This document shows positions 25,547 through 42,345 of a stretch of DNA of 64,000 nucleotides, piece by piece. This DNA comes from Acidobacteriota bacterium (lineage in GTDB: Bacteria > Acidobacteriota > CAIWXX01), in the NCBI GenBank assembly GCA_040755995.1, contig JBFMAF010000010.1, positions 128,001 to 192,000 on the forward strand. The letters run 5' to 3'. A program made the position numbers and the translations under genes. The notes below the pieces were generated by a model. That model was not told the DNA's origin and did not search any database. It worked only from the letters and a program-made list of their open reading frames with translations. Within the stretch, counting starts at the first letter, position 1, and each line of letters starts with the position of its first letter.

Positions 25547-27703
25547 TTACTGAGGGGAAGCGCGGCCTTCCTCGCCGGGGCCCCGTTCACCACCGGCCCC
25601 GCCCGGCCGAACCAGCAGCCGCACCAGCAGCAGCAAGAGCACCACGGCGACGGCGACCAGCGCGCCCCAGAAGAGCTTCTTCTGCATCGGGGCGGTCGAC
25701 GGAGGCTTGGGCACAACGGTCTCGGGGGAGAGCGCCAGCTCGTGCGCCTGGGCTCCCATCAGGCGAGGCGCGAGCAGCGCGAGATCGTAGCGCGGCGGGC
25801 GGAGACCCGGCTGGCCGTAGTAGAGCGACAGCCGCGCGCCGGCCCCGTAAAAGAACCTCAGCCGGTATGCCGGGAGCAGGATCTCTGCACTCTTGATCGG
25901 AAGCGGGCTGTTGTCTCCCTCGTCGACGAGCACGATCAGCCTGGCAGTTCGCGGAGCCTTGAGTGCCAGCGCCATGGCGGGCGCCGCCCGCTCCTCGGCC
26001 GCATGAATCCACTGCCCCTGCGCCAGCGTCTCGACCCATGGCTCCTCGCGCGTGTCCACCGGATGCCGCTCGGCTTGCACCGAGACCCAACGATCGAAGA
26101 CCCTCGCCGTGGTCTTGAGCACGAGCGTGCACTCGGGCAGCGTCTCGTATGGAAAATCGAGGAGGTACCGCGACATCGTGCCCGCGCCGCCTTCTTTCTT
26201 GTCGACGGTTCGTTGCGGTACATGCAGTGGCAGCGTCAGCGGCTCGCCGCGCCTTTCCAGAAGGTACGGCACCTGCCGCCCGCCTGAGTCTACGATTCGG
26301 ATGTCCCCAAGCTCGCTCTGGACCGTGTCCCCATGCGCCAGCACGGCGGCGTCCAGCTGCAGCGACGTGAGCCCCGGGCGTCCCTCGGGTATCGTTCTGG
26401 AGTATTCGAATTTCTGTACTTCCAACTCAGCGCCGACGAGCGGGATAGGGCTGGTTTGCGGCACAGGAGGCCCCGCGGCCACCAGATCGCGCGCCTCTCC
26501 CCAGTGCGCGTCCACCATCGTCGCGCTTTCGATCATCTTCCGCTTGGCTTCCAGGTCGTATCTGGGCGGCGCCATGCCTCGCACACCGTACCGTGCCATC
26601 AGCGGCGCGCCATCCGAGCTCTCGAAGTAGATCCAGGGCAAAGGCGCCAGCTCGACCGACACCTCCTTCAGGTCCAGCGGCGGGTTGTCGCGATCCTCCA
26701 CGACGAGCTGCAGCTCCGGTTCCTCAGGGCGTGCGATTGGGATCCGCAGGTCAGATGCAGTGAGGTCGCCGTGGCGTACCATTCGGAGAGGCGCGCTGCC
26801 CAGAGCGTGCGCCACTACCTGGCTCCCTTGGAGTCTCGCTTCTGTCACGTTCGCTACCCGGTCCAGGGTGCTCTCGCCCACCATGATATCCACCGCGACG
26901 ATGGGCAGATGCGCTCCGGCCAGGCGGATCATGAATCGGCTCTTTCCCGGCTCGCTCGCCAACCGCGCGAACTCGACAACCAGACGCACGGGCGCAGGGG
27001 ACACGATAGTACCCGGCACGCGCACGCGAACTCGGGATGGAGACGGCAGGCGGTGGCTGGATCGATCGTCCCAGATGAGTCGCAAATACCGGTACTCGCC
27101 GGGTGCGAAATCGACGTGGGTCCGCCGGAGTGACTCTTCGGGCAGGTCGAACAGAGTGCCCTCGGCCGTCAGCACGGTCCAGTGGCTTCGATCGCCGCTG
27201 CCTTCAAGCCTGAATTTTTTTACAAAAGGGGCCGGCAGCCCGAACAGCTCCATGCGGTCAACGACGCGCAGCGCACCGATGTCAGCCTCGAAGCCGCTCT
27301 TCTGCCGCGTCGCGGCCACCGGCAAGCGGGTCGCGTCAGTCCATCGCGCAGTCACATCGGGCGGCGACACGAGCAGATATGGCACTTCCCGGTCCGCAGC
27401 ATCGAAGAGCCGCAAATCACCGAGACCGCCCGCAAAGACCGGCTGCGGCTTCCCATCCGCGTCCAGCGCGTCGAGGTACCGCAGTCTCTCCGAGGAGACC
27501 AGCAGCGCCTGGTCGACAAGCAGGCGATTCGGCCTTGCGCCGCCAGGCTTCACCTCCCGCTCGAAACGGAACGCGGCCCTCGACGCGGGCGCCGGCTCCT
27601 GAGCAGCGGGCAATCGGCCTGCCAGCGCCCAACAGACCAGGAACAGCAGACCGGCCCGGCCGCCGACCGGCGGCACCGGGATCCGCGCGAGCGGCCGATC
27701 CAT
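25547..27703 (-). CDS. DUF3999-like exported protein with C-terminal membrane anchor
   Basis: Two repeats of DLRL.D...REVPYLL...DNPPL...PRYDL and a C-terminal TM helix. GGAGG before ATG 27703. Confidence 0.72.
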   Translation of the reverse strand: MDRPLARIPVPPVGGRAGLLFLVCWALAGRLPAAQEPAPASRAAFRFEREVKPGGARPNRLLVDQALLVSSERLRYLDALDADGKPQPVFAGGLGDLRLFDAADREVPYLLVSPPDVTARWTDATRLPVAATRQKSGFEADIGALRVVDRMELFGLPAPFVKKFRLEGSGDRSHWTVLTAEGTLFDLPEESLRRTHVDFAPGEYRYLRLIWDDRSSHRLPSPSRVRVRVPGTIVSPAPVRLVVEFARLASEPGKSRFMIRLAGAHLPIVAVDIMVGESTLDRVANVTEARLQGSQVVAHALGSAPLRMVRHGDLTASDLRIPIARPEEPELQLVVEDRDNPPLDLKEVSVELAPLPWIYFESSDGAPLMARYGVRGMAPPRYDLEAKRKMIESATMVDAHWGEARDLVAAGPPVPQTSPIPLVGAELEVQKFEYSRTIPEGRPGLTSLQLDAAVLAHGDTVQSELGDIRIVDSGGRQVPYLLERRGEPLTLPLHVPQRTVDKKEGGAGTMSRYLLDFPYETLPECTLVLKTTARVFDRWVSVQAERHPVDTREEPWVETLAQGQWIHAAEERAAPAMALALKAPRTARLIVLVDEGDNSPLPIKSAEILLPAYRLRFFYGAGARLSLYYGQPGLRPPRYDLALLAPRLMGAQAHELALSPETVVPKPPSTAPMQKKLFWGALVAVAVVLLLLLVRLLVRPGGAGGERGPGEEGRASPQ

Positions 27704-27723
27704 CGGATATCCTCCCCTTGAGA

Positions 27724-30700
27724 TCATTTCGGCAATTCCTCGCGAAGCACGAATCGTTGGATGAGAATGGCCACGAGCGCGAGGCACACCGCCAGTGCAA
27801 CTACTGATCCGACCCTGAACAGCCCACCCAGGCGCCAGAGATCGCTCAGGAAACACTTCGCCAGCGTCGCGACCAGAAGCACGATCGACGCGATGCGGGT
27901 CGGACGGCTCCTTGCAGCGATCCCCGCGATCAGTAGTCCTATCGCGAACAGTCCCCAGCCGATCGTGTACGTCAAATTCTGCGAGAGCCCTGCAGAGAAG
28001 TTGAATGTAAGCGCCGTCCCCTTCGAGTAAAAGTCCGCAATCTCGATGTTGAGCAGCAGGAAGAGCAGCACGGTCGCACACGCAGGCAGCCCTGACGACA
28101 GTCTGAAGAATCCAATTCGATCCTCAGTAGCGCGAAGAAACCTGGCACCGAGAAACATCGATATTGCAGACACAAGGTACGTGTAAAGATACCAGTTGAG
28201 AATCGGGTGCACCCCTCGGGGATGGTATTGGAACACGGCGGGATTGAACACCAGGCGGACGAACACTGCGGCGAAGAGCGCGGCCGACCACCAGAGAAGT
28301 CCACGATGCGGGATCTTGCGGTAGAGCCATCCGAGGGCAGCTGCTTGGAGCACCCAGCCGATCGTGATCCATTGCTTCTCCAATTGCAGCGGAATCGCGA
28401 CTGTGATGAACGCGAGCCCCGCCCCTGCCATCAGCGCCAATCTCCCGATGTCCCGTTCGCCGGACGGTTCGAGCCGCGTGAGCCGCCAGAGCAGCAGTGC
28501 CATCAATGCGGCCTGTGCGACGGGCAGGATCCCGATTCGATCACCGTAGTCGCCGGCCAGTATTGCGTGCCGCGCGAGGAAGAAGAACGGCACGCTCGCG
28601 AGCACCGCCGCCACGTGCGGCTCGCGAACGGGCCTGGCGCGATCACCCAACAGCAACGGATACACAACGAAGAGCGCGTAGAGCGCGAGGGCGAAGAGCA
28701 ACTCTTCCTTCCACATCTCCAGGTGAGCCTCTCGCCAGACATAGACGGCTACCGCAGGAAGCACGACCGCGATGACGGAGATGACGTATCGATCCGTCAG
28801 CCATGCGATCCACAGCAGAGCCACGATCAGAGCCGCGTGGGCAGGGATCAGGTAAGATATGCCTATCCGCGGGGCCACCGCGGCGGCAACTATCGCCACG
28901 GCCTGACCCAACAGGATGGCGCTCGTCGCCCCCTGGTCGAAGCGGCGGGCGAAGGATGCCCCCGGTGCTCTCGATTCCAGACGGCGCGCCAGCAGGAGCC
29001 AAGCGATCCCGAACGCCGCGACCGCGAGGGCGGCTCCGATGCCGATCTCGGGCCACGGGGCCAGTCGGGAGAAACACACCCACGTGAACAGAATCACCTG
29101 CGATGCGCCGAGCGAGACGAGGTGGATCTCGCCGCCGCGCACGTAGAGCGCCGCGATGCCGATCGCGAGGTCGAGCACAAATAGTATCGCCAGGAACGGC
29201 CACGGCGGCTCGGAGAGCGTCGGCTGCGCCGCCACGAAGAGCAAGAACAGATGGCCCGCCAGACCCAGGTACATCCCCTGCATCGACAGGGCTGCTTCGC
29301 CCGTGCGGCTCCGCAACCAGGCGTTCCCCGCGAGAACGAGCACAGCAAAACCCGCGACCACCATCAGAGCAGGGATCAGGATCGAGATAACCGTCGCAGT
29401 CGCCCACCAGACGGCGATGACGATCCACGACAAGACCACGCCCGCAATCGTCCAGAGCGAACGCGGAGCGGCCGCCCCTTCGATGAAGAGACCGACATTG
29501 AGGATCATGAGAAGCAGCGCCATGCCCCAGAGCGAGACCGCTGCGACGGGACCGGCGGCCAGGAAAAGGAGAAGAGCCAGACTCAAGAAGAGCACGAGCG
29601 CTCCCGCGCCCTGCGGTTGCAGCTTCTTACCCAACCGCCGCGCAACCAGGGGGACGCCGAGGTAGAACAGCGCGAAGAAGCCGTAGATGGTCAGTCCCGG
29701 GATGAGCCGGTCGGGCGTGAGATGTCTGGCCGACCAGACCGCCTCGGCGGCGACCGCGAAGAATGCGCCGAGGAAGTACGGTGCGCCAGACTCGCGCGCG
29801 ACGGCCAGGATCGCCAGCAGCGCGAGCAGAGCGAAGAGCACGCCGAAGAGCAGCCACGGCGAGGCGGTCTGCGGTTCGAGCGCTGAGAGCCCTGAGAAGA
29901 CGAAGAGCAGCAACGGCGCTATGATCGTGGCCCGCTTTCCATGACCCGCGAACGGCCGCCCGAGCCGCTCGGCGACGGTCTCTGCAAGGGCATACGTGCA
30001 CACCAGCGCGCAGACGAAAAGCAGAATGCCGGGCCATGCCGCTTTGGTGTAGCTCGCCGTGAGCCAGATCGCGAAGACGAGAATCGTGGATGCGCCGCCG
30101 ACGAAGTGCAGCAACTCGGGCCCGCGCAAGATGGCAACCGCAGCAAGTCCAAGGTCCACGCAGAGGAGGAACCCGAAGAGCAGCACGTAGCGCGCCCCGT
30201 ATGCCGGCACGGCGGCCATGTAAAGACCGAAGAGCAGCGGCAGCGCCGCGCTGATCGCAGTCGAGCGGCCGAAGATCGGACTCAGCTCCTCCGGCGCCTT
30301 CACCCGCGTCACCGCCAACATGGCCACGACACTGACAACAGCGAAGACGATGAAGATGCCCGCTGCCAACGGCAGCTGGCCCGAGTCGAGGAATTTCATC
30401 GCCCATCCCCACTGATACAGCGTGGTGAGAGCTACGGAGAAGGCGGTGAGGTGCGGCCAGTTCTTCCAGTAGGCAACCAGGGCCAGGCCGATGTTGAGAA
30501 GAAGGAGGTAGCTGAAGAGGCCGATCGGTTGGTTCTGTCCGGTCGAGAGCAGCGCAGGGGTGGCGAAGCCGCCGAGAAGACCGAGGACCGCTATGAACAG
30601 CGAGTCGTGACGGATCGACAACACAACCGCCACCACAGTGACGAGAATCATGAATGCGAACGTCCAGCCTGTGCTGAGCAGATGCCAGAGGGCGGCCGAC

Positions 30701-31530
30701 GCGAAGAAGGTCGAGAACAATATACCGATGCCCGCCGCGTCGAGCGCATTGGCGGTGACAGCGTAGCGCCTGGCGGCCTTCCATTCGCAGATGACCAGAA
30801 GCCCCGCACCCACAAGGAGACCGATGAGCATGCGGATCGGGGGCGTGAGCCAGCCCCTGTCGATCGAGACCTTGAGAAAGAGTACGACGCCCACGAGCGC
30901 CAGGATCCCGGCGCCCCATGAGAAGAGCTTCACGCCGATGAACTTCTCCCAATCGACGTTCGAGAGGGCGGAGAGCCCGGAGGGTGGTGGCGGGGGAGCC
31001 ACAGGAGGCCTGGGTGGCGGCGGGGGCGGTGGTGGAGGCGGCAGAGGCGGCCGGGCGGCTTCAGCCCGCGGTGGCGGTGCCGATTCCGCCGGCGCTGCGG
31101 GCGGCACTGCTTCTGCCGCGGGCGGGGGCGTCGGCGGTGGCTCTGCCGCCGTTGGCGCAGGACGTGGCACGGCTTCCACGGGAGGAGGCGCAGCAGCGGG
31201 CTCGGGCTGCGCGGGGCCGACTCCGGGTACCGGCACAACGGGTGCGGGTTGCGGCGTCGCGATCGCCGGCCCTGTGACAGGCACGGCAGCCGTGCGCACG
31301 GGCTCCGGCTCAGGCTCGCGTTCCAGCGGCCACCCCTTCAGCCCGGCGATGTCGCGCCGCAGCTCGCCGACCAGCTTGTGCAGCCGATCCAGCTCGTTCT
31401 TGTGGGCCCGCACAACACCTTCGACCTCCTCTTGCCCGCGCCTCGCCTTTCGCGCGACGACGAGCGCGGCGATCGGGAGCCCGAAGAGGAGTGCGAGCAG
31501 GACAATAACTACGAAGAGGGCCGCCTCCAC
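27724..31530 (-). CDS. DUF2339 polytopic membrane protein
   Basis: Pro-rich linker, WEKFIGVKLFSWGAG, LLGGFATPALLSTG, many TM helices, C-terminal KCFLSDLWRLGGLFRVGS. Confidence 0.82.
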   Translation of the reverse strand: MEAALFVVIVLLALLFGLPIAALVVARKARRGQEEVEGVVRAHKNELDRLHKLVGELRRDIAGLKGWPLEREPEPEPVRTAAVPVTGPAIATPQPAPVVPVPGVGPAQPEPAAAPPPVEAVPRPAPTAAEPPPTPPPAAEAVPPAAPAESAPPPRAEAARPPLPPPPPPPPPPRPPVAPPPPPSGLSALSNVDWEKFIGVKLFSWGAGILALVGVVLFLKVSIDRGWLTPPIRMLIGLLVGAGLLVICEWKAARRYAVTANALDAAGIGILFSTFFASAALWHLLSTGWTFAFMILVTVVAVVLSIRHDSLFIAVLGLLGGFATPALLSTGQNQPIGLFSYLLLLNIGLALVAYWKNWPHLTAFSVALTTLYQWGWAMKFLDSGQLPLAAGIFIVFAVVSVVAMLAVTRVKAPEELSPIFGRSTAISAALPLLFGLYMAAVPAYGARYVLLFGFLLCVDLGLAAVAILRGPELLHFVGGASTILVFAIWLTASYTKAAWPGILLFVCALVCTYALAETVAERLGRPFAGHGKRATIIAPLLLFVFSGLSALEPQTASPWLLFGVLFALLALLAILAVARESGAPYFLGAFFAVAAEAVWSARHLTPDRLIPGLTIYGFFALFYLGVPLVARRLGKKLQPQGAGALVLFLSLALLLFLAAGPVAAVSLWGMALLLMILNVGLFIEGAAAPRSLWTIAGVVLSWIVIAVWWATATVISILIPALMVVAGFAVLVLAGNAWLRSRTGEAALSMQGMYLGLAGHLFLLFVAAQPTLSEPPWPFLAILFVLDLAIGIAALYVRGGEIHLVSLGASQVILFTWVCFSRLAPWPEIGIGAALAVAAFGIAWLLLARRLESRAPGASFARRFDQGATSAILLGQAVAIVAAAVAPRIGISYLIPAHAALIVALLWIAWLTDRYVISVIAVVLPAVAVYVWREAHLEMWKEELLFALALYALFVVYPLLLGDRARPVREPHVAAVLASVPFFFLARHAILAGDYGDRIGILPVAQAALMALLLWRLTRLEPSGERDIGRLALMAGAGLAFITVAIPLQLEKQWITIGWVLQAAALGWLYRKIPHRGLLWWSAALFAAVFVRLVFNPAVFQYHPRGVHPILNWYLYTYLVSAISMFLGARFLRATEDRIGFFRLSSGLPACATVLLFLLLNIEIADFYSKGTALTFNFSAGLSQNLTYTIGWGLFAIGLLIAGIAARSRPTRIASIVLLVATLAKCFLSDLWRLGGLFRVGSVVALAVCLALVAILIQRFVLREELPK

Positions 31531-31933: not shown

Positions 31934-32803
31934 TCACAGGGCGCAGCCGGCAATGAGCACGAGGAGGACGCCCGTGTACTGCAGGATCGCAAGGCGGATC
32001 GCCGGCAGCAGCTGGCGAGGGGTGCCAGACGCCCTCATGGCAACGGCCGTCGAGCGCCACGTGAGTGGAAGACAAACGAAGGCCGCCCAGGCCAGCGGCG
32101 GGAGAGTTCCCGAGAGTAGGGCCGCCAAGAGGATGACATGGGCGACTGTCACGACGCAGGCGTACAGCCTGACCGTACTTGCCTGCCCTACCCTCACGCA
32201 GATGTTCCGTTTGCCCACCAGGCGGTCCTGGAAGTAGTCGGGGATTTCGTTGAGTACCGCAATGCCGAACAGGAGGAGACCCGGTATCAGCGAGACCAGC
32301 AACGGGAGCACGTCGATTCGTCTAGTCTGAACGTAGTAGCTCCCCAGTGTCATGAGAGGGCCGTAACAGCAGGCTATGGTGATCTCGCCGTATCCCCGGT
32401 ACGCGAGCCTGAGCGGAGGTCCGAGGTAGAGGAACGCGCCGACGAATCCGGCAAGAGAGAACGCGATGATGGGCATTCCACACCTCAGGGCGAGCAGAGT
32501 GGCAACCAGAAGCGCGCCCGAGAAGGCAATGACGCCAACCTGAAACGTGCGCACCGTCACAGGGACCGGTTCCAACTGGAACACCCTGTCTGTGCCAGCG
32601 CGCCAGTCGAAGTACTCGTTGAAGGCCTCGACCCCGACCAGCACGAGCAGAATTCCGCCCAGACCCACAAGAAACAGGCCGGCATCGAATCGCCTCTCCG
32701 CGTGGAAGGCGGCGGAGCTGCCCAGTGCGTAAGGCAACAGCCCGGCGAAGAGGAGGAACCGGTAGCGGAGGAGCCTCAGCAGCCCGGATAAAGCTCCACC
32801 CAC
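31934..32803 (-). CDS. UbiA-superfamily (MenA-like) membrane prenyltransferase
   Basis: Asp-rich motifs NEYFDWRAGTD and NEIPDYFQD..VGKRN, YLGPPLRLAYRGYGE. Probable GTG start 32803 with GGGAGAGG upstream, overlapping the radical SAM gene. Confidence 0.88.
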   Translation of the reverse strand: MGGALSGLLRLLRYRFLLFAGLLPYALGSSAAFHAERRFDAGLFLVGLGGILLVLVGVEAFNEYFDWRAGTDRVFQLEPVPVTVRTFQVGVIAFSGALLVATLLALRCGMPIIAFSLAGFVGAFLYLGPPLRLAYRGYGEITIACCYGPLMTLGSYYVQTRRIDVLPLLVSLIPGLLLFGIAVLNEIPDYFQDRLVGKRNICVRVGQASTVRLYACVVTVAHVILLAALLSGTLPPLAWAAFVCLPLTWRSTAVAMRASGTPRQLLPAIRLAILQYTGVLLVLIAGCAL

Positions 32804-33771
32804 TTGTTGGCCTCTCCCAGCAGCCTTGGATCTTCCACCACACGTTTGGCGAACGTCACGACCTCCGGCTCTCGCCACGCTCTCTTGTAACGCTGCCAGG
32901 CCTCCGAGAGGGAGTGTCTTCTGAGGTCCGCGCAGACGAAGGGCAATGGACCGATGAGCTTGACCTTGCCATTCGGGATGACCAGCAGGCTCGCAGCGGG
33001 ACAGTCCAGCCGGTATCTGAGCTCCTCGACCACGTCATACGGGTAGTAGTAGATCTTCATCTTGCCGTCGTACTTCGTCTGCTTCTCCTTCAACACATCG
33101 AAGAACTTCTCGTACTCCGTCTCCGTTGGGCACAGCAGATCCCAGTTACGCGCGGCACGCCCTATGCGCATTATCTTGCCCGTGTAGAAACCGTATGTCC
33201 CCATTCTGTAAGCCATCTCGATGACATCACCCGTCTCATGGATGTTGAATTTGGAGGGAACGAAGACGATCTCTGTGGTCACACCAGCCGCCACGAGGTG
33301 GTCGCAGGCCTCAACGACCTTCTCCCAATCCCCATTCGGTCGCATCATTCGGAAGGTCTGCGGGGTTGAACCATCTACGCTCACCTGAACAGACCTGAAT
33401 CCCAGCGCTCCAATCCGGTTCGCCACCTGACGGTCGATCAGGAGGCCGTTGGTTTCCACCTTCAGGCTAGTCCCATGGGCTCGCAGGAACGAGCTGATCT
33501 CGAAGAAGCGCGGGTGGAGAAGCGGCTCCCCACCGGAGATGGCCACGTAAGGGATTCGCAGATCGACGATCTGCTTGAGAAAGAACGTAACCTCTTCGGG
33601 CGTGAGCTCGTCCGAGAACAGGTGGTCTCCCACTTCCTCGCAGCAGTGCAGGCAGGACAAGTTGCACGCGGAGTTCAACTGCCATGCTACGAACAGTGGG
33701 GCATCGAAGTCGCTGTAGCTGGTCCCTGCAATCGCCGCCGCGGGCGCAGCCTGGGTCGGATCGTGTGTCAT
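32776..33771 (-). CDS. Radical SAM peptide maturase, MftC/PqqE-like, with degenerate SPASM/twitch tail
   Basis: CNLSCLHC (CX3CX2C), ISGGEPLL, ETNG, VQVSVDG. FDAPLFVAWQLNSAC resembles the MftC N-terminus. Confidence 0.9.
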   Translation of the reverse strand: MTHDPTQAAPAAAIAGTSYSDFDAPLFVAWQLNSACNLSCLHCCEEVGDHLFSDELTPEEVTFFLKQIVDLRIPYVAISGGEPLLHPRFFEISSFLRAHGTSLKVETNGLLIDRQVANRIGALGFRSVQVSVDGSTPQTFRMMRPNGDWEKVVEACDHLVAAGVTTEIVFVPSKFNIHETGDVIEMAYRMGTYGFYTGKIMRIGRAARNWDLLCPTETEYEKFFDVLKEKQTKYDGKMKIYYYPYDVVEELRYRLDCPAASLLVIPNGKVKLIGPLPFVCADLRRHSLSEAWQRYKRAWREPEVVTFAKRVVEDPRLLGEANKWVELYPGC

Positions 33772-34031
33772 TCCTGTGGCTCCTTCATCATGATGCCGTT
33801 GGTCTGCAGCTTCTGAACAAACTCCTGCACTTCTTCGCGAATTCCCACCGGTTCCTTCCGGTAGACCCGCGAGAGATCCGCAGCTACGGCGTCGACGCTT
33901 TTCCTTTCCTCGAGCAGTCGCAAGATGCGGGCGCCGGTCTCATTGGTCACGAACAACTTCTCGCTGAGCGTCTCGAACACAACAGCACCGAATTTCTCCT
34001 GGCGCACTCTCACGTGCTTTTCGAACTGCAT
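33768..34031 (-). CDS. PqqD/MftB-like RiPP recognition element (RRE) protein, 87 aa
   Basis: VRVRQEKFGAVVFE...LFVTNETGARILRLL...IREEVQEFVQKLQTNGI. GGAGGAGA RBS; ATGA overlap with the radical SAM gene. Confidence 0.85.
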   Translation of the reverse strand: MQFEKHVRVRQEKFGAVVFETLSEKLFVTNETGARILRLLEERKSVDAVAADLSRVYRKEPVGIREEVQEFVQKLQTNGIMMKEPQE

Positions 34032-34063
34032 GTCTCCTCCTCTTCGTATCGAGCCGTTTAGGC

Positions 34064-34128
34064 CAAGCCCGGGCTCCCGCTCGCATGTGAGAGGAAGGGG
34101 TTGATCACAGCCGGGGAGCCCGAGCTTG
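34064..34128 (-). other. Intergenic RNA hairpin between the peptide and RRE genes
   Basis: Minus-strand arms CAAGCUCGGGCUCCC and GGGAGCCCGGGCUUG form 15 bp with one G-U pair. Confidence 0.65.
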
Positions 34129-34141
34129 CACTCGGCGCGTA

Positions 34142-34288
34142 TCACGTGAACCTGATGTAGGGCTGGGCCATCACACGCCCGGACACGTCCTCAAGGGTCG
34201 GTTTCGTCCATTCCAACCCGTTGTCGCCTTCGGGCTCGGATCGCGTCTCTCTCGCCATCGCAACGCTCTCGCATGCTGCATTCTCCAA
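34142..34288 (-). CDS. Putative RiPP precursor peptide, 48 aa: MENAACESVAMARETRSEPEGDNGLEWTKPTLEDVSGRVMAQPYIRFT
   Basis: AAAGGAGGTGA Shine-Dalgarno 5 nt before TTG 34288 (alternative ATG 34258). WxxPxL motif. Lies directly upstream of RRE and radical SAM genes. Confidence 0.8.
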   Translation of the reverse strand: MENAACESVAMARETRSEPEGDNGLEWTKPTLEDVSGRVMAQPYIRFT

Positions 34289-34317
34289 TTCGCTCACCTC
34301 CTTTCCGGCAATGGGAT

Positions 34318-34333
34318 GTGACCACCTGGTCAC
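34318..34333. promoter_or_regulatory. Putative TetR operator 1, upstream of the peptide gene
   Basis: Perfect inverted repeat GTGACCA-CC-TGGTCAC. Confidence 0.75.
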
Positions 34334-34350
34334 TTCGACGACAAAAAAAA

Positions 34351-34992
34351 TCACGCGGAAAGACCCTTCCTCAACACCTCCACGATGTCATCCACAAACT
34401 GCTCCAGTTCCGGCCTCTCCCTGTCCCAGATGCGGCCTGCCGAATCTAGAAAGGCAAGGGCATGTGCCTGCAGAAACCGGTCCATCACTGCATCCAACAG
34501 GAAGACTGCAGCCTTCATGTCGATGTCCTTGCGGATCTCGCCTCTCGCCCTCCCCTGCAGAAGTAAGGAGTGGAGGTACTCCGCCGAGAAGAGACGGATC
34601 TTCTGGAGCAGCTCTTCCCGAAACGGGGCTTCCCTCCCGTATACCATTCTGAGATAGATCCCGTAAATCAAGGGATGACGATCTATGAAGTCAACCCCTG
34701 CCAGAAGAGACTTCCGTATCCTCTCGAAGACCGGATCATCCTTGGTCTCGGCCTTGACCTGCTTGAGCGTCTTGCGCACGAGGTCGACCGCATGGTCGAA
34801 GGTATGGAGAAAGAGACTCCGCTTGTTGTTGAAATACTGGTAGATCGATCCCTTGGCTATCCCCAGGCGGGCTACGATCTCGTTGATGCTGGCGCGCTCA
34901 TAGCCCTTCTCGGAGAATTCCCGGATGGCGGTCTCCAGCACCCTGTTCCGCTTATCCTCGGGGAGATTGAAGAAGGTCTTCCTCGCTTCCAC
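34351..34992 (-). CDS. TetR/AcrR family transcriptional regulator
   Basis: TFFNLPEDKRNRVLETAIREFSEKGYERASINEIVARLGIAKGSIYQYFNNK. Confidence 0.95.
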   Translation of the reverse strand: MEARKTFFNLPEDKRNRVLETAIREFSEKGYERASINEIVARLGIAKGSIYQYFNNKRSLFLHTFDHAVDLVRKTLKQVKAETKDDPVFERIRKSLLAGVDFIDRHPLIYGIYLRMVYGREAPFREELLQKIRLFSAEYLHSLLLQGRARGEIRKDIDMKAAVFLLDAVMDRFLQAHALAFLDSAGRIWDRERPELEQFVDDIVEVLRKGLSA

Positions 34993-35029
34993 GTGTCCTG
35001 CTCAGCGCATGCTCGAAGGGTCAGTCTTT

Positions 35030-35072
35030 GTGACCATGCGGTCATAATACAGCGCGATGAGACACACGTCAA
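35030..35072 (-). promoter_or_regulatory. Sigma70 promoter of tetR with overlapping operator 2
   Basis: Minus strand TTGACG(35072-35067)-17 bp-TATTAT(35049-35044). GTGACC-ATGC-GGTCAT at 35030-35045. Confidence 0.75.
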
Positions 35073-35089
35073 CCCGAACTCTCGCGTTT

Positions 35090-35671
35090 CCATGCCCCGA
35101 CGTGTTCGTTGTCCTCGGTGTTCCAAAGGTGCTGCGCCGCAACTACCTCATATGGGAAGAAGGCCAGGTACCCACGGTGGTTATCGAGGTGACTTCGGCA
35201 TCCTCGCGCGTGGAGGATCTCGGATCGAAGAAGGGCCTCTATGAACAGCTCGGCGTGCGCGAGTATTTCCTCTTCGACCCGCTCGGCGACTACCTCAAGC
35301 CGCAGCTACAGGGTTTCCGACTGACTCCGGATGGTTACATGCGTGTGCTTGGGACGGAGCTTGCTAGTGAAGTGCTGGGGCTGCGCTTGGTCACCGAGTC
35401 GGATGGGCTGAGGCTCTACGACATCCGGACCGGAGCGAAGCTGGAGAAGTACGAGGAGACGATGGAGCGCCTCAGGAGAGAGCGCGAGCGCGCGCAGCTG
35501 GAACAGGCGAGGGCCGACGAGGAGTCGCGGCGAGCCGAGGTGGAGAGAATGCGGGCTGACGAAGAGGCGCGGCGGGCTGAGGAGCAGAGGCTTCGGGCCG
35601 ATCATGCAGAAGCCGAGATCGTCAGGCTGCGAGCGGAGCTGGCCAGGTTGAGATCTGAACTGGGCCGCTGA
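35090..35671 (+). pseudogene. Uma2 (PD-(D/E)xK) family endonuclease lacking its N-terminus
   Basis: PDVFVV...PTVVIEVTS.S...D...KK.LYEQLGVREYFLFDP plus coiled-coil tail. Similarity starts abruptly at the PD motif. Confidence 0.7.
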
Positions 35672-37427: not shown

Positions 37428-38900
37428 TCAGAGCGCGGCGAGGCGGTAGAGCGAATCCAGCGTGAGGGTGACACGTTCGTACAGCCAGGTCGGGTAGATC
37501 CCGAACCAGATGATGAAGAACGTGCCGGCGGCGAGTACGAGCGTCAGAGAAAAGAACGCAGGGGCCGGCTTGATCTCGGCGGTCTCCGGCTTCATGTAGG
37601 CGAAGATCACCGGCCGTATGTAGTAGTAGAGCGACAGGGCCGAGTTCAGAACCGCGAAGACGACCAGATATGTATGCCCTGCCTGGAGCGCCGCCTTGAA
37701 TACGAAGAACTTCCCAAAAAAGCCGGCCGTCGGCGGAATCCCCGCGAGCGACAGCAGGCTCAGGGCCAGCACCGCGCCTATCACAGGGTTCTTGAAGCCC
37801 AACCCGCCGTACCGGTCTATGTCCACCAGCTCCTCGTCCTCCCGCACCAGCGCGATCACTGCCCCAAAGGCGGCGAAGTTCATCGCGGCGTACGCGACCA
37901 GATAAAACATCATCGCGGCCACACCGCCGGGGCTTCCCGCCACGAACGCCATGAGGACGTAGCCTACGTGCGCGATCGAAGAGTATGCGAGCATTCGCTT
38001 GATGTTGTTCTGCCGCAACGCGGCAAAGTTGCCTATCAGCATCGTGCACGCCGAGATGACGACAGCCATGTGGCGCCACTCGACCTCCAGCGACGGGAAC
38101 GCCGTGAGGAGTACGCGGGCCAGGGCGGCGAAGCCCGCCATCTTGGGCCCGACCGCCATGAACGCCGTGACCGGCGTCGGCGCTCCCTGGTAGACGTCGG
38201 GGGTCCACATGTGGAACGGGAAAGCCGAGATCTTGAACAGGAACCCCACAAGGAGCAGCGCAAGGCCGGGGCCTATGTACTGCGGGTGGTGCATCGTACC
38301 CCTGGCGATGCTGTCCGCCACCGCGGGGAGGAAGGTCGTGCCGGTCGCCCCGTATACCATAGCGATGCCAAACAGGAAGAACGACGTCGAGAACGCGCCC
38401 AGCAGGAAATACTTGACGGCGGCTTCGACCGAGTACACATTCTCGCGCTGGAAGCCCGCCATCGCGTAGAGGCCGACCGACAGGATTTCGATCCCGATGA
38501 AAATCACGAGCAGCTCCTTGCTCGTGACGATGCTCATCATGCCGACCACGGAGAACAGCAAGAGGGCAAAGAACTCCCCGTGCAATATCTTCTGTGCCGT
38601 GAGAAACGAAATCGACAACAACACGGCGGCGGCGGCCACGAGCAGGAACACGAACCGGAAGAAGAACCCGTATGAGTCCAACGTGAGCATGCTGTCGTAC
38701 GCCGTGCCCACGGTGCCGGTCAAGCGTAACAGGGCGTACAGCGCAACCAGGATGCCGGCCAGGGAGATGTACGGCGCGTAGCGCCGCGAGAACGCGGGGG
38801 CCATGGCCGCCAGCAGCATCACGGCGACGCCGGTCAGCAGAAGCGTCATCTCCGGACCGAGCGCCGCGAGGCTCACCAGCGGGGGCGAGATTGCGTTCAT
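37428..38900 (-). CDS. nuoN: NADH-quinone oxidoreductase subunit N
   Basis: EAAVKYFLLG, FKISAFPFHMWTPDVYQGAPTP, KRMLAYSSIAH. Confidence 0.95.
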   Translation of the reverse strand: MNAISPPLVSLAALGPEMTLLLTGVAVMLLAAMAPAFSRRYAPYISLAGILVALYALLRLTGTVGTAYDSMLTLDSYGFFFRFVFLLVAAAAVLLSISFLTAQKILHGEFFALLLFSVVGMMSIVTSKELLVIFIGIEILSVGLYAMAGFQRENVYSVEAAVKYFLLGAFSTSFFLFGIAMVYGATGTTFLPAVADSIARGTMHHPQYIGPGLALLLVGFLFKISAFPFHMWTPDVYQGAPTPVTAFMAVGPKMAGFAALARVLLTAFPSLEVEWRHMAVVISACTMLIGNFAALRQNNIKRMLAYSSIAHVGYVLMAFVAGSPGGVAAMMFYLVAYAAMNFAAFGAVIALVREDEELVDIDRYGGLGFKNPVIGAVLALSLLSLAGIPPTAGFFGKFFVFKAALQAGHTYLVVFAVLNSALSLYYYIRPVIFAYMKPETAEIKPAPAFFSLTLVLAAGTFFIIWFGIYPTWLYERVTLTLDSLYRLAAL

Positions 38901-40459
38901 TCTCGATCTCCGACGGCTGCCGTGGTGTGCGGGCCTGTCTCGATGCCGCGCTGTTCGACCTGGACGGGCCTGGACACGGTCGCGCCGTAAAGCAACTGCC
39001 TGGTCGATGCGTGCATGCACCTGGTGAACATCGGTGAGTAGATGCCCATGAGGAAAATGCAGATGATCAGTGGCACGAGTGTGAGCGTCTCGCGGGGGTT
39101 CAGGTCGGGGTGTTTCGAATGCTTTTCCGGTGCTACTCCATAGAGCATGCGCTGGAGGGCCCAGAGCATGTAGACGGCGCTCAGGATGACCCCGGTCGAC
39201 GCGATCACCGCAAACACCGCGCGGCTCTTGAAGGTTCCCATCAGAATCAGGAACTCGCCGACGAACCCATTGGTACCCGGGAGTCCGATGGAGGAGAGCG
39301 CGACGATCAGGAAGAAGGCGGAGTACACGGGCATGACCTTCCAGAGTCCGCCAAGGGCCGCGATCTCGCGCGTGTGCGCGCGCTCGTAGATCACGCCGAC
39401 GATTATGAACAGCGCTCCGGTGGAGACGCCGTGGTTCAGCATCTGATAGATGGCCCCCTCGACCGCCTCCTGATTGAGAGCGAAGATGCCCAGAACGACG
39501 AAGCCGAGGTGTGCGACGGAGCTGTACGCAACCAGCTTCTTGATGTCCTTTTGAATCATGGCCATGAGCGATCCATAGATGATCCCGACAAGCGCCATGA
39601 TCATGATGAAACCTGCGTACTCGTGCGTCGCGTGCGGGAAGAGCGGAAGATTGAAGCGCAGCATGCCGTAGGTGCCCATCTTCAGCAGGATCCCTGCCAG
39701 CAGCACGCTGCCTGCGGTGGGAGCCTCGACGTGCGCATCGGGAAGCCACGTGTGGAACGGGAAGAGCGGCACTTTGATTGCAAACGCGAGGAAGAAGGCC
39801 CAGAAGAGCCAGATCTGCTCGGTCGAGCTAATGTCCAGCGCGTAGAGCCGCAGGATGGAGAACGTCCCATGCCCCTCTTGGGCGGCATACAACTGGTACA
39901 AGTAGATGATGCCCACGAGCATGAGCACGCTGCCGACGAGCGTGTAGATGAAGAACTTGATCGACGCGTAAATCCGTCTCGGCCCGCCCCAGATCCCGAT
40001 CAAGAAGTACATCGGGATCAGCATGCCCTCCCAGAACAGGTAGAACAGAAGCAGGTCCAGGGACACGAAGACGCCGATCATGCCCGTCTCGAGCAGCAGC
40101 ATCATGAAGAAATATTCCCTGACCCGTTCGGTGATCGCAGAGAAAGACGCGAGCACTGAGAGGACCATGAGGAAGGTCGTCAGCAGCACCAGGAACAGCG
40201 AGATGCCGTCGATTCCGAGATCGTAGCTCGTGTTCAGCTGCGGGATCCAGGTGCGGGACTCGCAGAACTGGAAGCCCGGGCGCGTCGGATCGAACCCGAA
40301 GTACAGTTTGAGCGACAGCAGGAAGTCCAGCAAGGTGACGGCGAATGCAAACAGGCGGATCTGTCGAAGGCTCTGGCGTGGGATCAGGATCAGAAGAAAG
40401 GCGCCGAGCAGGGGTACGAACGTGACGGCGGAGAGGAGCGATCCTTGCAGCATGCCCAT
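38897..40459 (-). CDS. nuoM: NADH-quinone oxidoreductase subunit M
   Basis: LGIDGISL, FWEGMLIPMY, KVPLFPFHTWLPDAHVEAPT. Confidence 0.96.
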   Translation of the reverse strand: MGMLQGSLLSAVTFVPLLGAFLLILIPRQSLRQIRLFAFAVTLLDFLLSLKLYFGFDPTRPGFQFCESRTWIPQLNTSYDLGIDGISLFLVLLTTFLMVLSVLASFSAITERVREYFFMMLLLETGMIGVFVSLDLLLFYLFWEGMLIPMYFLIGIWGGPRRIYASIKFFIYTLVGSVLMLVGIIYLYQLYAAQEGHGTFSILRLYALDISSTEQIWLFWAFFLAFAIKVPLFPFHTWLPDAHVEAPTAGSVLLAGILLKMGTYGMLRFNLPLFPHATHEYAGFIMIMALVGIIYGSLMAMIQKDIKKLVAYSSVAHLGFVVLGIFALNQEAVEGAIYQMLNHGVSTGALFIIVGVIYERAHTREIAALGGLWKVMPVYSAFFLIVALSSIGLPGTNGFVGEFLILMGTFKSRAVFAVIASTGVILSAVYMLWALQRMLYGVAPEKHSKHPDLNPRETLTLVPLIICIFLMGIYSPMFTRCMHASTRQLLYGATVSRPVQVEQRGIETGPHTTAAVGDRE

Positions 40460-42345
40460 CAGAACACCCAGATCGACAGCAGCAACACGGCGCCAACGAG
40501 CATTGCGGCGGCGTATGCCTTGAGGTTGCCGGTCTGTATCCTGGCGAGAACCCGGCCGGTCTCCATCGCGCCTGCGGCAATGGAGTCGAGCGTGTGATCG
40601 ATGACGCCCAGGTCGAAGGCCGTGTAGACGCGATCGGAGCCGTTCTTGAGCGGGTCGACGATCGCGGCGTCATACCCCTCGTCCACGAAGTACTTGTTGA
40701 GCAGCACCTTGTAGAGCCGCCGGAATCTCTCGGCAAGGCGCTTCGGCGTATCCGGCTCCTTGATGTAATAGTGGTACGCGAGAAGCCAGCCGATAGCCAT
40801 CACCGCCACAGCCGCGGCGGCCAGCACCTTCGGCAAGGCCCCGTGCACCGCGGCGTGCTCGACCTCGCGATGAGCCCAGATCGAACCGCTGATGAAATGC
40901 GGCAGCGAACTGTACACCCAACCCGCCGCGATACTTCCCAGCGCCAGCAGCATCAGCGGCGTCGTCATGCTCCGCGGCGACTCGTGCGGATGCACAGCAG
41001 GATCGACGCGGCTGACTCCGAAGAAAGTCATGTTCAGCAGCCTGAACATGTAGAAAGACGTCATGGCCGCCGTGCTAATCCCTATCGCCCAGAGCCAGAC
41101 GTTCGTCTCGAACGCCTTCTCGAGTATCAAGTCCTTGCTGTAGAAGCCCGAAAGCCAGGGAAAGCCGGTGATCGCCAGCGTTGCCACTGCGAAGGTCCAC
41201 GTGGTGATCTTGAGCTTCTTGCCCAGACCTCCCATCCTGCGTATGTCCTGCTCGCCGGACATCGCGTGAATCACGCTGCCGGCGCCCAGGAAAAGCAGCG
41301 CCTTGAAGAATGCATGGGTGTACAGATGGAATATCGCCGCGTCGAACGCAGCGACGCCGCAGGCAAGGAACATGTAGCCCAGCTGGCTCACCGTGGAATA
41401 GGCGAGCACGCGCTTGATATCGTTCTGGACCAGCCCGATCGACGCGGCGAAGAAGGCCGTCATCGCACCCACCCAGGCCACCACGAGCAGCACCCAGGTA
41501 GTCCTCGCGTACAGGTCACCCATTCGCGCGATCATGTAGACGCCCGAGGTCACCATCGTCGCGGCATGGATCAGGGCCGAGACGGGCGTCGGGCCTTCCA
41601 TCGCGTCGGGCAGCCAGACGTAAAGCGGAATCTGCGCGGACTTGCCGGTGGCACCTATGAACAGGCACAGTGCGATGAGGTTCAGCAGCAGGCTCCCTTG
41701 CGGCACCTCCTGCACCTGCGCCAGGATGGGCTGTATGTTCAATGTGCCGAAGTTCGCATAGAGCAGCATCATGCCGGCCAGGAAGCCTGCGTCTCCCACC
41801 CGGTTGACTACGAACGCTTTCTTGCCCGCGTCCGATGCCGACTTACGCTCGTACCAGAACCCGATCAGGAGGTACGAACACAGCCCGACGCCCTCCCAGC
41901 CGATGAACAGGACCACGAGGTTCGAACCAAGCACGAGCATCAGCATGGCGAACGTGAAGAGGTTCAAGTACGTGAAGTACCGGGAGTAGTCCCGGTCGTG
42001 ATGCATGTACCCGACCGAGTACACGTGGATCAAGAAGCCCACGCCGGTGACGACCAGGCACATGATCAGGGAGAGCGAATCGAGGCGGAAGGCGAGGTCG
42101 ATCTGCATGCCGCCTGAGTCGATGAATCTGAACAGCGGCGGTCCATCCAGCGGAAGCGCGTGGAACCCGGGCAGCTGCACACCCAGCGTCATCAGCAGGT
42201 ACCCGACCGTGATCAGGAACGAGCCGAACACCGAGAGACACGCCAGCAGCGAGATCGCGGGCCGCGGCATCCTGAGGCCGAGCAGCGCGAGGATCAGTGC
42301 CGAGGCCGCGGGAAATAGCGGGATCAGCGCAACGTATTCGCTCAT
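40459..42345 (-). CDS. nuoL: NADH-quinone oxidoreductase subunit L
   Basis: GWEGVGLCSYLLIGFW, GKSAQIPLYVWLPDAMEGPTPVSALIHAATMV. Confidence 0.96.
   Translation of the reverse strand: MSEYVALIPLFPAASALILALLGLRMPRPAISLLACLSVFGSFLITVGYLLMTLGVQLPGFHALPLDGPPLFRFIDSGGMQIDLAFRLDSLSLIMCLVVTGVGFLIHVYSVGYMHHDRDYSRYFTYLNLFTFAMLMLVLGSNLVVLFIGWEGVGLCSYLLIGFWYERKSASDAGKKAFVVNRVGDAGFLAGMMLLYANFGTLNIQPILAQVQEVPQGSLLLNLIALCLFIGATGKSAQIPLYVWLPDAMEGPTPVSALIHAATMVTSGVYMIARMGDLYARTTWVLLVVAWVGAMTAFFAASIGLVQNDIKRVLAYSTVSQLGYMFLACGVAAFDAAIFHLYTHAFFKALLFLGAGSVIHAMSGEQDIRRMGGLGKKLKITTWTFAVATLAITGFPWLSGFYSKDLILEKAFETNVWLWAIGISTAAMTSFYMFRLLNMTFFGVSRVDPAVHPHESPRSMTTPLMLLALGSIAAGWVYSSLPHFISGSIWAHREVEHAAVHGALPKVLAAAAVAVMAIGWLLAYHYYIKEPDTPKRLAERFRRLYKVLLNKYFVDEGYDAAIVDPLKNGSDRVYTAFDLGVIDHTLDSIAAGAMETGRVLARIQTGNLKAYAAAMLVGAVLLLSIWVF

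Follow-up and report, generated by a model that had tools for sequence, protein, structure and literature searches.

Positions 31934–35072 of the window, a 64,000-nucleotide stretch of contig JBFMAF010000010.1 from an Acidobacteriota bacterium (GCA_040755995.1), contain a cassette whose conserved unit is formed by a precursor peptide, a PqqD-like recognition element (RRE) for a peptide made by the ribosome and modified after translation (RiPP), a radical S-adenosylmethionine (SAM) enzyme and a MenA-like prenyltransferase; a TetR-family regulator lies outside the unit. We hold with moderate confidence that the cassette product is a peptide-derived, polyprenylated membrane electron carrier. The front of the cassette resembles the pyrroloquinoline quinone (PQQ) and mycofactocin systems and its back resembles menaquinone biosynthesis, but it fails membership of each of these and of the lasso peptides. 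The first-pass annotation of this DNA described five co-oriented genes and all of them were found on the minus strand, with Pfam assignments of TetR_N, PqqD, Radical_SAM and UbiA. The conserved unit comprises the following genes.

31934–32803, minus strand: UbiA-family, MenA/UBIAD1-like membrane prenyltransferase (~289 aa, PF01040)
32776–33771, minus strand: radical SAM enzyme (331 aa, PF04055, CX3CX2C intact)
33768–34031, minus strand: PqqD-like RRE (87 aa, PF05402)
34142–34288, minus strand: precursor peptide (48 aa, TTG start, no Pfam family)

The TTG start of the peptide gene has AGGAGGTGA 5 nt upstream, and from this ribosome-binding site alone we infer that the peptide is translated. The mutual overlap that had been reported for the next three genes was confirmed: the RRE and radical SAM genes overlap through ATGA, and the radical SAM and UbiA genes by 28 nt if the latter starts at GTG 32803. 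The UbiA reading frame is open up to 32878, and this GTG is the likely start, as it stands behind GGGAGAGG and agrees with the starts of homologues. No peptidase is encoded in the cassette, as had been noted before.

The composition of the unit is evident from loci that were found by the radical SAM enzyme alone. The enzyme has 1397 relatives at E ≤ 1e-30, the best 120 listed being at least 60% identical to it. Through an alignment of 36 relatives, 154 loci were sampled (74 from genomes and the best 80 of 160 from metagenomes), which contain UbiA in 148 cases, the RRE in 135 and the peptide in 124–125. Where the flanks suffice, the peptide and RRE are present in 107 of 107 loci (at least 900 nt upstream) and UbiA in 138 of 141 (at least 400 nt downstream). 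Thus, the conserved peptide that the first-pass annotation expected beside homologous radical SAM/UbiA pairs is carried by every judgeable locus. The TetR gene, which was then counted as a cassette member, occurs in one of the 154 related loci, and the mycofactocin layout that it seemed to complete is coincidental (under the MftR model TIGR03968 the regulator reaches 44.5, where the cut-off is 224.9). The three loci without UbiA are partial: L038:423-2488 has two radical SAM enzymes only and is the second locus of a genome already holding a full cassette, L051:585-2624 has a radical SAM enzyme and a polyprenyl synthase only, and L071:6036-7936 has an RRE fragment, the peptide and one radical SAM enzyme. 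Identity-to-query correlations between the genes (rho 0.33–0.37) were discarded as too crude for evidence of co-evolution.

Variants of the unit are found in several lineages. Two radical SAM copies are present in several loci and three diverged ones in the proteobacterial type (L067, L070, L072–L075 and L079), in which the peptide gene has moved between the second and third paralogues. In the Hadarchaeota version (L024:75-4908), the peptide lies on the opposite strand after UbiA, and behind it come a prenyl diphosphate synthase gene and one resembling geranylgeranyl reductase. One Omnitrophota genome holds two cassettes, L016 behind nqrF and L040 behind hdr/flx genes, whose UbiA proteins are 62% identical and each of which is followed by a polyprenyl synthase. 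According to record titles, which are those of metagenome-assembled genomes (MAGs) and some of which may be wrong, cassettes are present in Planctomycetota, Omnitrophota, Elusimicrobia, Lentisphaerae, WOR-3, Thermodesulfobacteriota, Nitrospirota, Nitrospinota, Aminicenantia, Armatimonadota, Bacillota, Hydrogenedentota and proteobacteria, and in the archaeal Hadarchaeota and Bathyarchaeota. Occurrence is sparse, with 13 of 261 genomes sampled from the order to which L023 belongs (title Sedimentisphaerales), three of 191 in an Omnitrophota class sample and three of 201 in a planctomycete class sample. Vertical inheritance within the host lineage was rejected since none of 60 relatives of this host (two from the same family) has the cassette. 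No plasmid matched at E 1e-40 and no copy was seen in viral contigs.

The peptide consists of a variable N-terminus, a leader W27-x-x-P30-x-L-x-D-V-S and a C-terminus M40-A-Q-P-Y44-I-R-F-T48. All 113 distinct peptides, a set that left out L103 (no stop codon) and peptides cut at contig ends, share the same last nine residues (MAQPYIRFT), directly followed by the stop codon, and leader positions W(-22), P(-19), V(-14) and S(-13) are equally invariant. This tail is encoded by 105 distinct DNA sequences using all synonymous codons, and the same ending occurs in 29 further database proteins. Peptides were recognized by likeness to the query and a wholly different core could escape, yet all 107 judgeable loci have this one. 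The core had been given as AQPYIRFT; the invariant block begins one residue earlier, at Met, while a lasso-like reading of the leader would still cut before Ala and make Met the last leader residue. An invariant C-terminus is also the pattern that served to predict mycofactocin, the precursor of which has seven invariant residues of eight and ends with Cys-Gly-Val-Tyr, as described in the accessible part of PMC3023750. The peptide matches neither MftA nor PqqA, as stated earlier, since it ends with PYIRFT rather than CGVY and has Met at the Glu column of PqqA.

In PqqA, Glu and Tyr (ExxxY) are cross-linked by PqqE (PMC10906245, accessible part). The Tyr lies 17 residues past the leader Trp in both peptides (90 of 90 cassette peptides and 21 of 21 PqqA sequences, the latter fetched with the Pfam model, which partly builds in their uniform spacing), D/E residues align at +7 and in all 90 cassette peptides the invariant Met stands at the Glu column. 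This Met/Tyr register is a lead and weak evidence, because the spacing is partly model-built, the hhalign probability is 0.9% (E 0.027) and a lasso model fits the leader better: the lasso PadeA hidden Markov model (HMM) matches 26 of 49 peptides (best E 0.00074) and the PqqA HMM one of 49 (E 0.14).

Lasso peptides have Asp or Glu at core position 7–9 and depend on a lasso cyclase and a leader peptidase. A lasso identity (paeninodin family), to which the PadeA-like leader and an RRE close to lasso B1 proteins point, was rejected as the core contains no acidic residue and no cyclase or B2 peptidase is found among the annotated neighbours. The same peptide features bear on another explanation, which we consider unlikely, in which the product is a prenylated peptide but not a carrier, such as a lipid-anchored RiPP signal, a membrane modifier or an accessory of a membrane complex. 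Nine invariant residues exceed the need of a two-residue cofactor, the leader ends with VM as in lasso-type precursors, and peptidase, hydroxylase and oxidase are all missing from the cassette. However, a core invariant across bacteria and archaea is atypical of signals or antibiotics, and no exporter or immunity gene is found among the annotated recurrent neighbours. Such a cross-domain invariant core instead resembles mycofactocin, as far as the accessible part of PMC3023750 describes it.

The RRE passes PF05402 (50.4, cut-off 23.4) and falls below MftB (30.4, cut-off 33) and PqqD TIGR03859 (32.3, cut-off 46); its nearest solved chains are TfuB1, TbiB1 and PqqD. In the radical SAM enzyme, CX3CX2C is kept in 146 of 146 sequences, and beyond residue 200 the only recurring cysteines are Cys280 (138 sequences) and Cys214 (106 sequences). 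With at most two cysteines conserved in this region, the SPASM/twitch ligand set is absent. The predicted structure (pLDDT 89) has SkfB and PqqE as its closest folds. The best-scoring model is MftC (TIGR03962; 123.8, cut-off 265), the PqqE model TIGR02109 gives 73.9 (cut-off 381), and for the named radical SAM peptide systems (GeoRSP, SynChlorMet, WGK, SkfB, nif11) the 25 best of 66 families are all far below their curated HMM cut-offs. None of the five proteins reached the cut-off of any NCBIfam model; the check for an existing named system, which the first-pass annotation called for, thus leaves the peptide, radical SAM enzyme and UbiA under every cut-off. ESM Atlas returned only unnamed radical SAM clusters, and none of the 32 nearer representatives is over a curated cut-off among its five best families. 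A wider PqqE-like radical SAM group (P0181–P0200) has few or no C-terminal cysteines and no member with an NCBIfam name.

Cross-linking by PqqE requires its auxiliary clusters (PMC10906245, accessible part). These are absent here, which means that a plain PqqE reaction should not be presumed. The step may be redox-neutral, or the SAM cluster may serve as the electron sink, and the two or three enzyme copies in some loci suggest several radical steps. The cassette is like the PQQ system in its short peptide with a WxxP leader, stand-alone PqqD-type RRE and radical SAM enzyme of the same fold. It is unlike it in the Met that replaces the Glu of PqqA, in a radical SAM enzyme that lacks the SPASM AuxI/AuxII clusters and is below the PqqE cut-off, in the added membrane prenyltransferase and in its hosts, many of which come from anoxic settings (record titles). 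PqqB, PqqC and a protease are not found among 73 HMM-annotated neighbour proteins, rarer clusters having been viewed by eye only. With mycofactocin, the cassette shares an invariant C-terminus, an RRE with a radical SAM enzyme, a sparse cross-domain operon and the lack of an exporter. It differs in that the peptide ends with FT, the radical SAM enzyme is far under the MftC cut-off and lacks SPASM, no flavin dehydrogenase is present and its rare TetR is not MftR; the mycofactocin glycosyltransferase and creatininase are absent from the annotated recurrent neighbours.

The cassette UbiA scores 78 against MenA TIGR00751 (cut-off 102), and its nearest solved chain is UBIAD1. Both acidic motifs, NEYFD and NEIPDYxQD, which we take to bind Mg/diphosphate, are conserved in 30 UbiA sequences, and the cassette proteins have an invariant RYR motif of their own. 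In the 261-genome sample, a close orthologue (at least 65% identity) is found only in the 13 radical-SAM-bearing genomes and in one contig-edge fragment, with nearly all other matches dropping to 36% identity or less. A quick tree, in which row L226 is mis-framed and on a long branch, parts cassette UbiAs from stand-alone MenA with a branch support of 99. Among 51 hosts, the cassette UbiA is never over the MenA cut-off, whereas 12 separate genes pass. The enzyme is like menaquinone biosynthesis (MenA/UBIAD1, HepT, MenG) in being of MenA type with both acidic motifs and in often being beside a long-chain polyprenyl synthase (best model HepT) and quinone-using complexes; it is unlike it in being below the MenA cut-off, in a separate group and tied to a peptide module, in hosts without Men or complete Mqn head-group genes. 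Two further UbiA-family genes were seen in the own genome: a chlorophyll-synthase/DGGGP-like protein behind an AraC-like gene (L164:1378-2367) and a MenA that passes its cut-off, with a membrane protein after it that resembles, by eye, a CAAX-type protease (L165:1420-3040).

Recurrent neighbours of the cassette include an NqrA–F-like operon, Hdr/Mvh/Flx, Sdh/Frd, formate dehydrogenase, NapC/NrfH, NrfD, ETF-FixC and multiheme cytochromes, as well as a HepT-like polyprenyl synthase and molybdopterin and heme biosynthesis genes. In 17 loci the cassette comes after nqrF and in six it separates nqrE from nqrF, and insertion inside nqr operons speaks against a prenylated peptide that carries no electrons. 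It adjoins nuoN in L112, ETF-FixC in L020, NrfH/NrfA in L067 and Sdh-Fdh with Hdr in L010; the nuo genes of L112 abut the cassette directly upstream and belong to the same cluster as the nuoL-M-N-like genes of the window. Among the GTDB loci, 42 are 9 kb or longer; of these, 17 have a quinone-type module, 22 have that or a polyprenyl synthase and 23 have any respiratory module, compared with seven, eight and 23 of 619 tiles of the own genome, an enrichment that is overstated because the neighbour queries were derived from these same loci and for which the control genome has no Nqr. The polyprenyl synthase is immediately downstream of the cassette in 25 of 154 loci. It was rejected as a fifth core gene since it occurs in 33 of 154 loci only and is also linked to nqrF without the cassette. 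The Nqr-like operon neighbouring the cassette in L156:158-1576 and L023:816-6335 is a hybrid, with an NqrA-like subunit bearing an RnfC-type 4Fe–4S pair; its five other scanned subunits score best against Nqr models, yet below the cut-offs.

Heme O and prenylated flavin are examples of enzyme-bound prenylated cofactors, and the neighbourhood could be explained by a cofactor of this kind that serves one particular oxidoreductase and forms no diffusible pool. Neighbours are often MoeA, MobB and AhbA (by HMM) and cobalamin- or biotin-like genes (by eye), and one genome has two copies beside different operons. No common partner emerges, however: the neighbour is in turn Nqr, Hdr/Flx, Sdh, NapC, FixC or Nuo, and Nqr is absent from the own genome; we regard this explanation as very unlikely.

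Of the 72 genomes that underlie the loci, 50 were tested for quinone routes, and the own genome makes 51. None of the 51 shows a complete menaquinone head-group route and MenB is over cut-off in none, while PF02621 is found in four of 50, with one match each. MqnA/D, MqnC, MenD, MenB and UbiD are all missing from the own genome, which is 99.84% complete. In the 261-genome sample, 18 genomes have two PF02621 matches (futalosine route) and none of these has the cassette. An NqrB-like gene is present in seven of 13 cassette genomes and in 39 of 248 others. A stand-alone MenA-like gene is found in 188 of the 229 genomes that have neither futalosine nor the cassette, one of 18 with futalosine and six of 13 with the cassette; TIGR00751 is over cut-off among the five best families in three of six such proteins scanned. 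For these organisms, synthesis, salvage and the cassette thus look like options to choose between, which fits a carrier role. Salvage of a menaquinone precursor is suggested to be widespread in the anaerobic planctomycetes of the sample.

These host data also bear on a modified naphthoquinone as the product. UbiA would prenylate salvaged 1,4-dihydroxy-2-naphthoate (DHNA) or a relative, and the peptide and radical SAM enzyme would supply or install a substituent, with the peptide as donor or scaffold. In keeping with this, UbiA is closest to MenA/UBIAD1, a DHNA-salvage-type MenA is the norm among relatives, and seven of the 13 cassette genomes in the sample have no second MenA-like gene. The separate grouping of cassette UbiAs below the MenA cut-off with their own RYR motif, their restriction to radical-SAM-bearing genomes (save at a contig edge) and the retention of both enzymes in 12 of 51 hosts make it quite unlikely.

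We return to the peptide-derived, polyprenylated carrier, for which the following pathway is proposed from family knowledge and genomic context. The RRE would bind the WxxPxL leader and offer the radical SAM enzyme the invariant tail. With its SAM cluster alone, the enzyme would modify the tail, most likely at Tyr44 and possibly by linking Met40 to Tyr44 at the positions that correspond to the Glu and Tyr joined by PqqE; repeated action may occur, given the two or three diverged copies in some hosts. A housekeeping protease would release the modified unit, the cassette encoding none. The MenA-like enzyme, the class of which follows from its sequence, would then attach a long polyprenyl chain from a neighbouring or housekeeping synthase, and the product would shuttle membrane electrons for modules linked to Nqr, Nuo, Sdh/Frd, NapC/NrfH, ETF or Hdr, a carrier that hosts would make themselves in place of salvaged menaquinone. 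A more specific version, which is tentative and rather doubtful, has the clusterless PqqE-like enzyme joining the tail Met and Tyr into a sulfur-bearing ring and the MenA offshoot polyprenylating it, in an oxygen-independent route to a new class of isoprenoid electron carrier. The membrane quinone-like carrier of the first-pass annotation gains support from genomic context, and its redox role stays a proposal.

Besides the weak likeness to PqqA, the missing auxiliary clusters and the limits of the neighbour counts, several observations weigh against a carrier of this kind. No hydroxylase or oxidase travels with the cassette, which leaves no explanation for how a redox-active ring would arise. 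Of the 42 long loci, 19 have no respiratory or prenyl-synthase neighbour, as a lipid-anchored peptide would allow, and the synthase directly follows nqrF in eight of 20 nqr loci from cassette-free genomes. Of the 46 genomes with NqrB-like genes, seven have the cassette, four have futalosine and 35 have neither. The exclusion between cassette and futalosine is not significant (0 of 13 versus 18 of 261, p 0.61), and Fisher tests of this kind ignore kinship, which inflates the p values. MenA is kept over cut-off in 12 of 51 hosts including the own genome, which also has MenG over cut-off, and a ubiquinone-type UbiA is over cut-off in three of five proteobacterial hosts. The cassette is therefore not the sole possible quinone source in MenA- or UbiA-bearing hosts: MenA and MenG without head-group genes imply salvage rather than synthesis in the own genome, and in the proteobacterial hosts the cassette product would be an extra carrier. 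Strict replacement of menaquinone is not supported, in view of the non-significant exclusion and the many hosts that keep MenA or UbiA. Furthermore, most hosts are incomplete MAGs.

The remaining features of the region concern local regulation and context.

34064–34128, minus strand: 15-bp hairpin between the peptide and RRE genes, a possible mRNA stabilizer or attenuator (z -2.87)
34319–34332, no strand: TetR operator-like palindrome 2, 5' of the peptide ribosome-binding site
34351–34992, minus strand: TetR-family regulator (213 aa, PF00440; accessory)
35031–35044, no strand: TetR operator-like palindrome 1, at the end of the -10 box
35044–35072, minus strand: sigma-70-like tetR promoter TTGACG-17-TATTAT (10/12 consensus match only)
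37428–42345, minus strand: context outside the cassette, co-oriented genes, presumably nuoL-M-N-like by sequence features, ending ~2.4 kb upstream of tetR

The two common palindromes reported by the first-pass annotation are present and read TGACCA-NN-(T/C)GGTCA, a number equalled in none of 100 shuffles. Among 254 loci compared, only this locus and L009 have them, two each at the same positions, and the other 252 have none. L009 is also the sole other locus bearing this TetR. Because the palindromes are confined to these two TetR-bearing loci, the regulator and its operator-like sites are a real but local regulatory add-on. The promoter search for tetR gave two hits against 0.9 expected in shuffles. 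The hairpin was rejected as a conserved element, as it is not general in the family: z is below -2 in 28 of 116 related spacers, with a median of -0.6 (mononucleotide shuffles). A Uma2-family gene (35057-35671) is divergent from tetR, and a pair of genes encoding DUF3999 (844 aa) and DUF2339 (1268 aa, Pro-rich N-terminus) lies downstream of the cassette at 25547-31530.

No description of the cassette was found in the open-access literature, as judged from listings and the starts of abstracts, with subscription papers and most supplements outside this scope and mining tables possibly listing it unnamed. In the accessible part of PMC9062424, two supplement files included, prenyl, PYIRF and MenA do not occur, and UbiA occurs solely within a longer word. 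A 2026 survey of 26,264 genomes reports, in its accessible part, many lineages without any quinone pathway and suggests further pathways (PMC13386864). The cassette is a concrete four-gene candidate for a quinone-type pathway, testable in E. coli. To our knowledge, the ring of every known membrane quinone comes from small-molecule pathways, and we know of no polyprenyl tail on either of the known peptide-derived redox cofactors, PQQ and mycofactocin. If the proposal is true, the cassette would provide a family of radical SAM enzymes that modify peptides with no need of auxiliary clusters, as well as a UbiA enzyme that acts on a peptide-derived acceptor. In the more specific and rather doubtful version, with its sulfur-bearing ring, the menaquinone role could be filled by a third route in addition to Men and futalosine, one that would free its hosts from DHNA salvage and move between phyla with respiratory operons.

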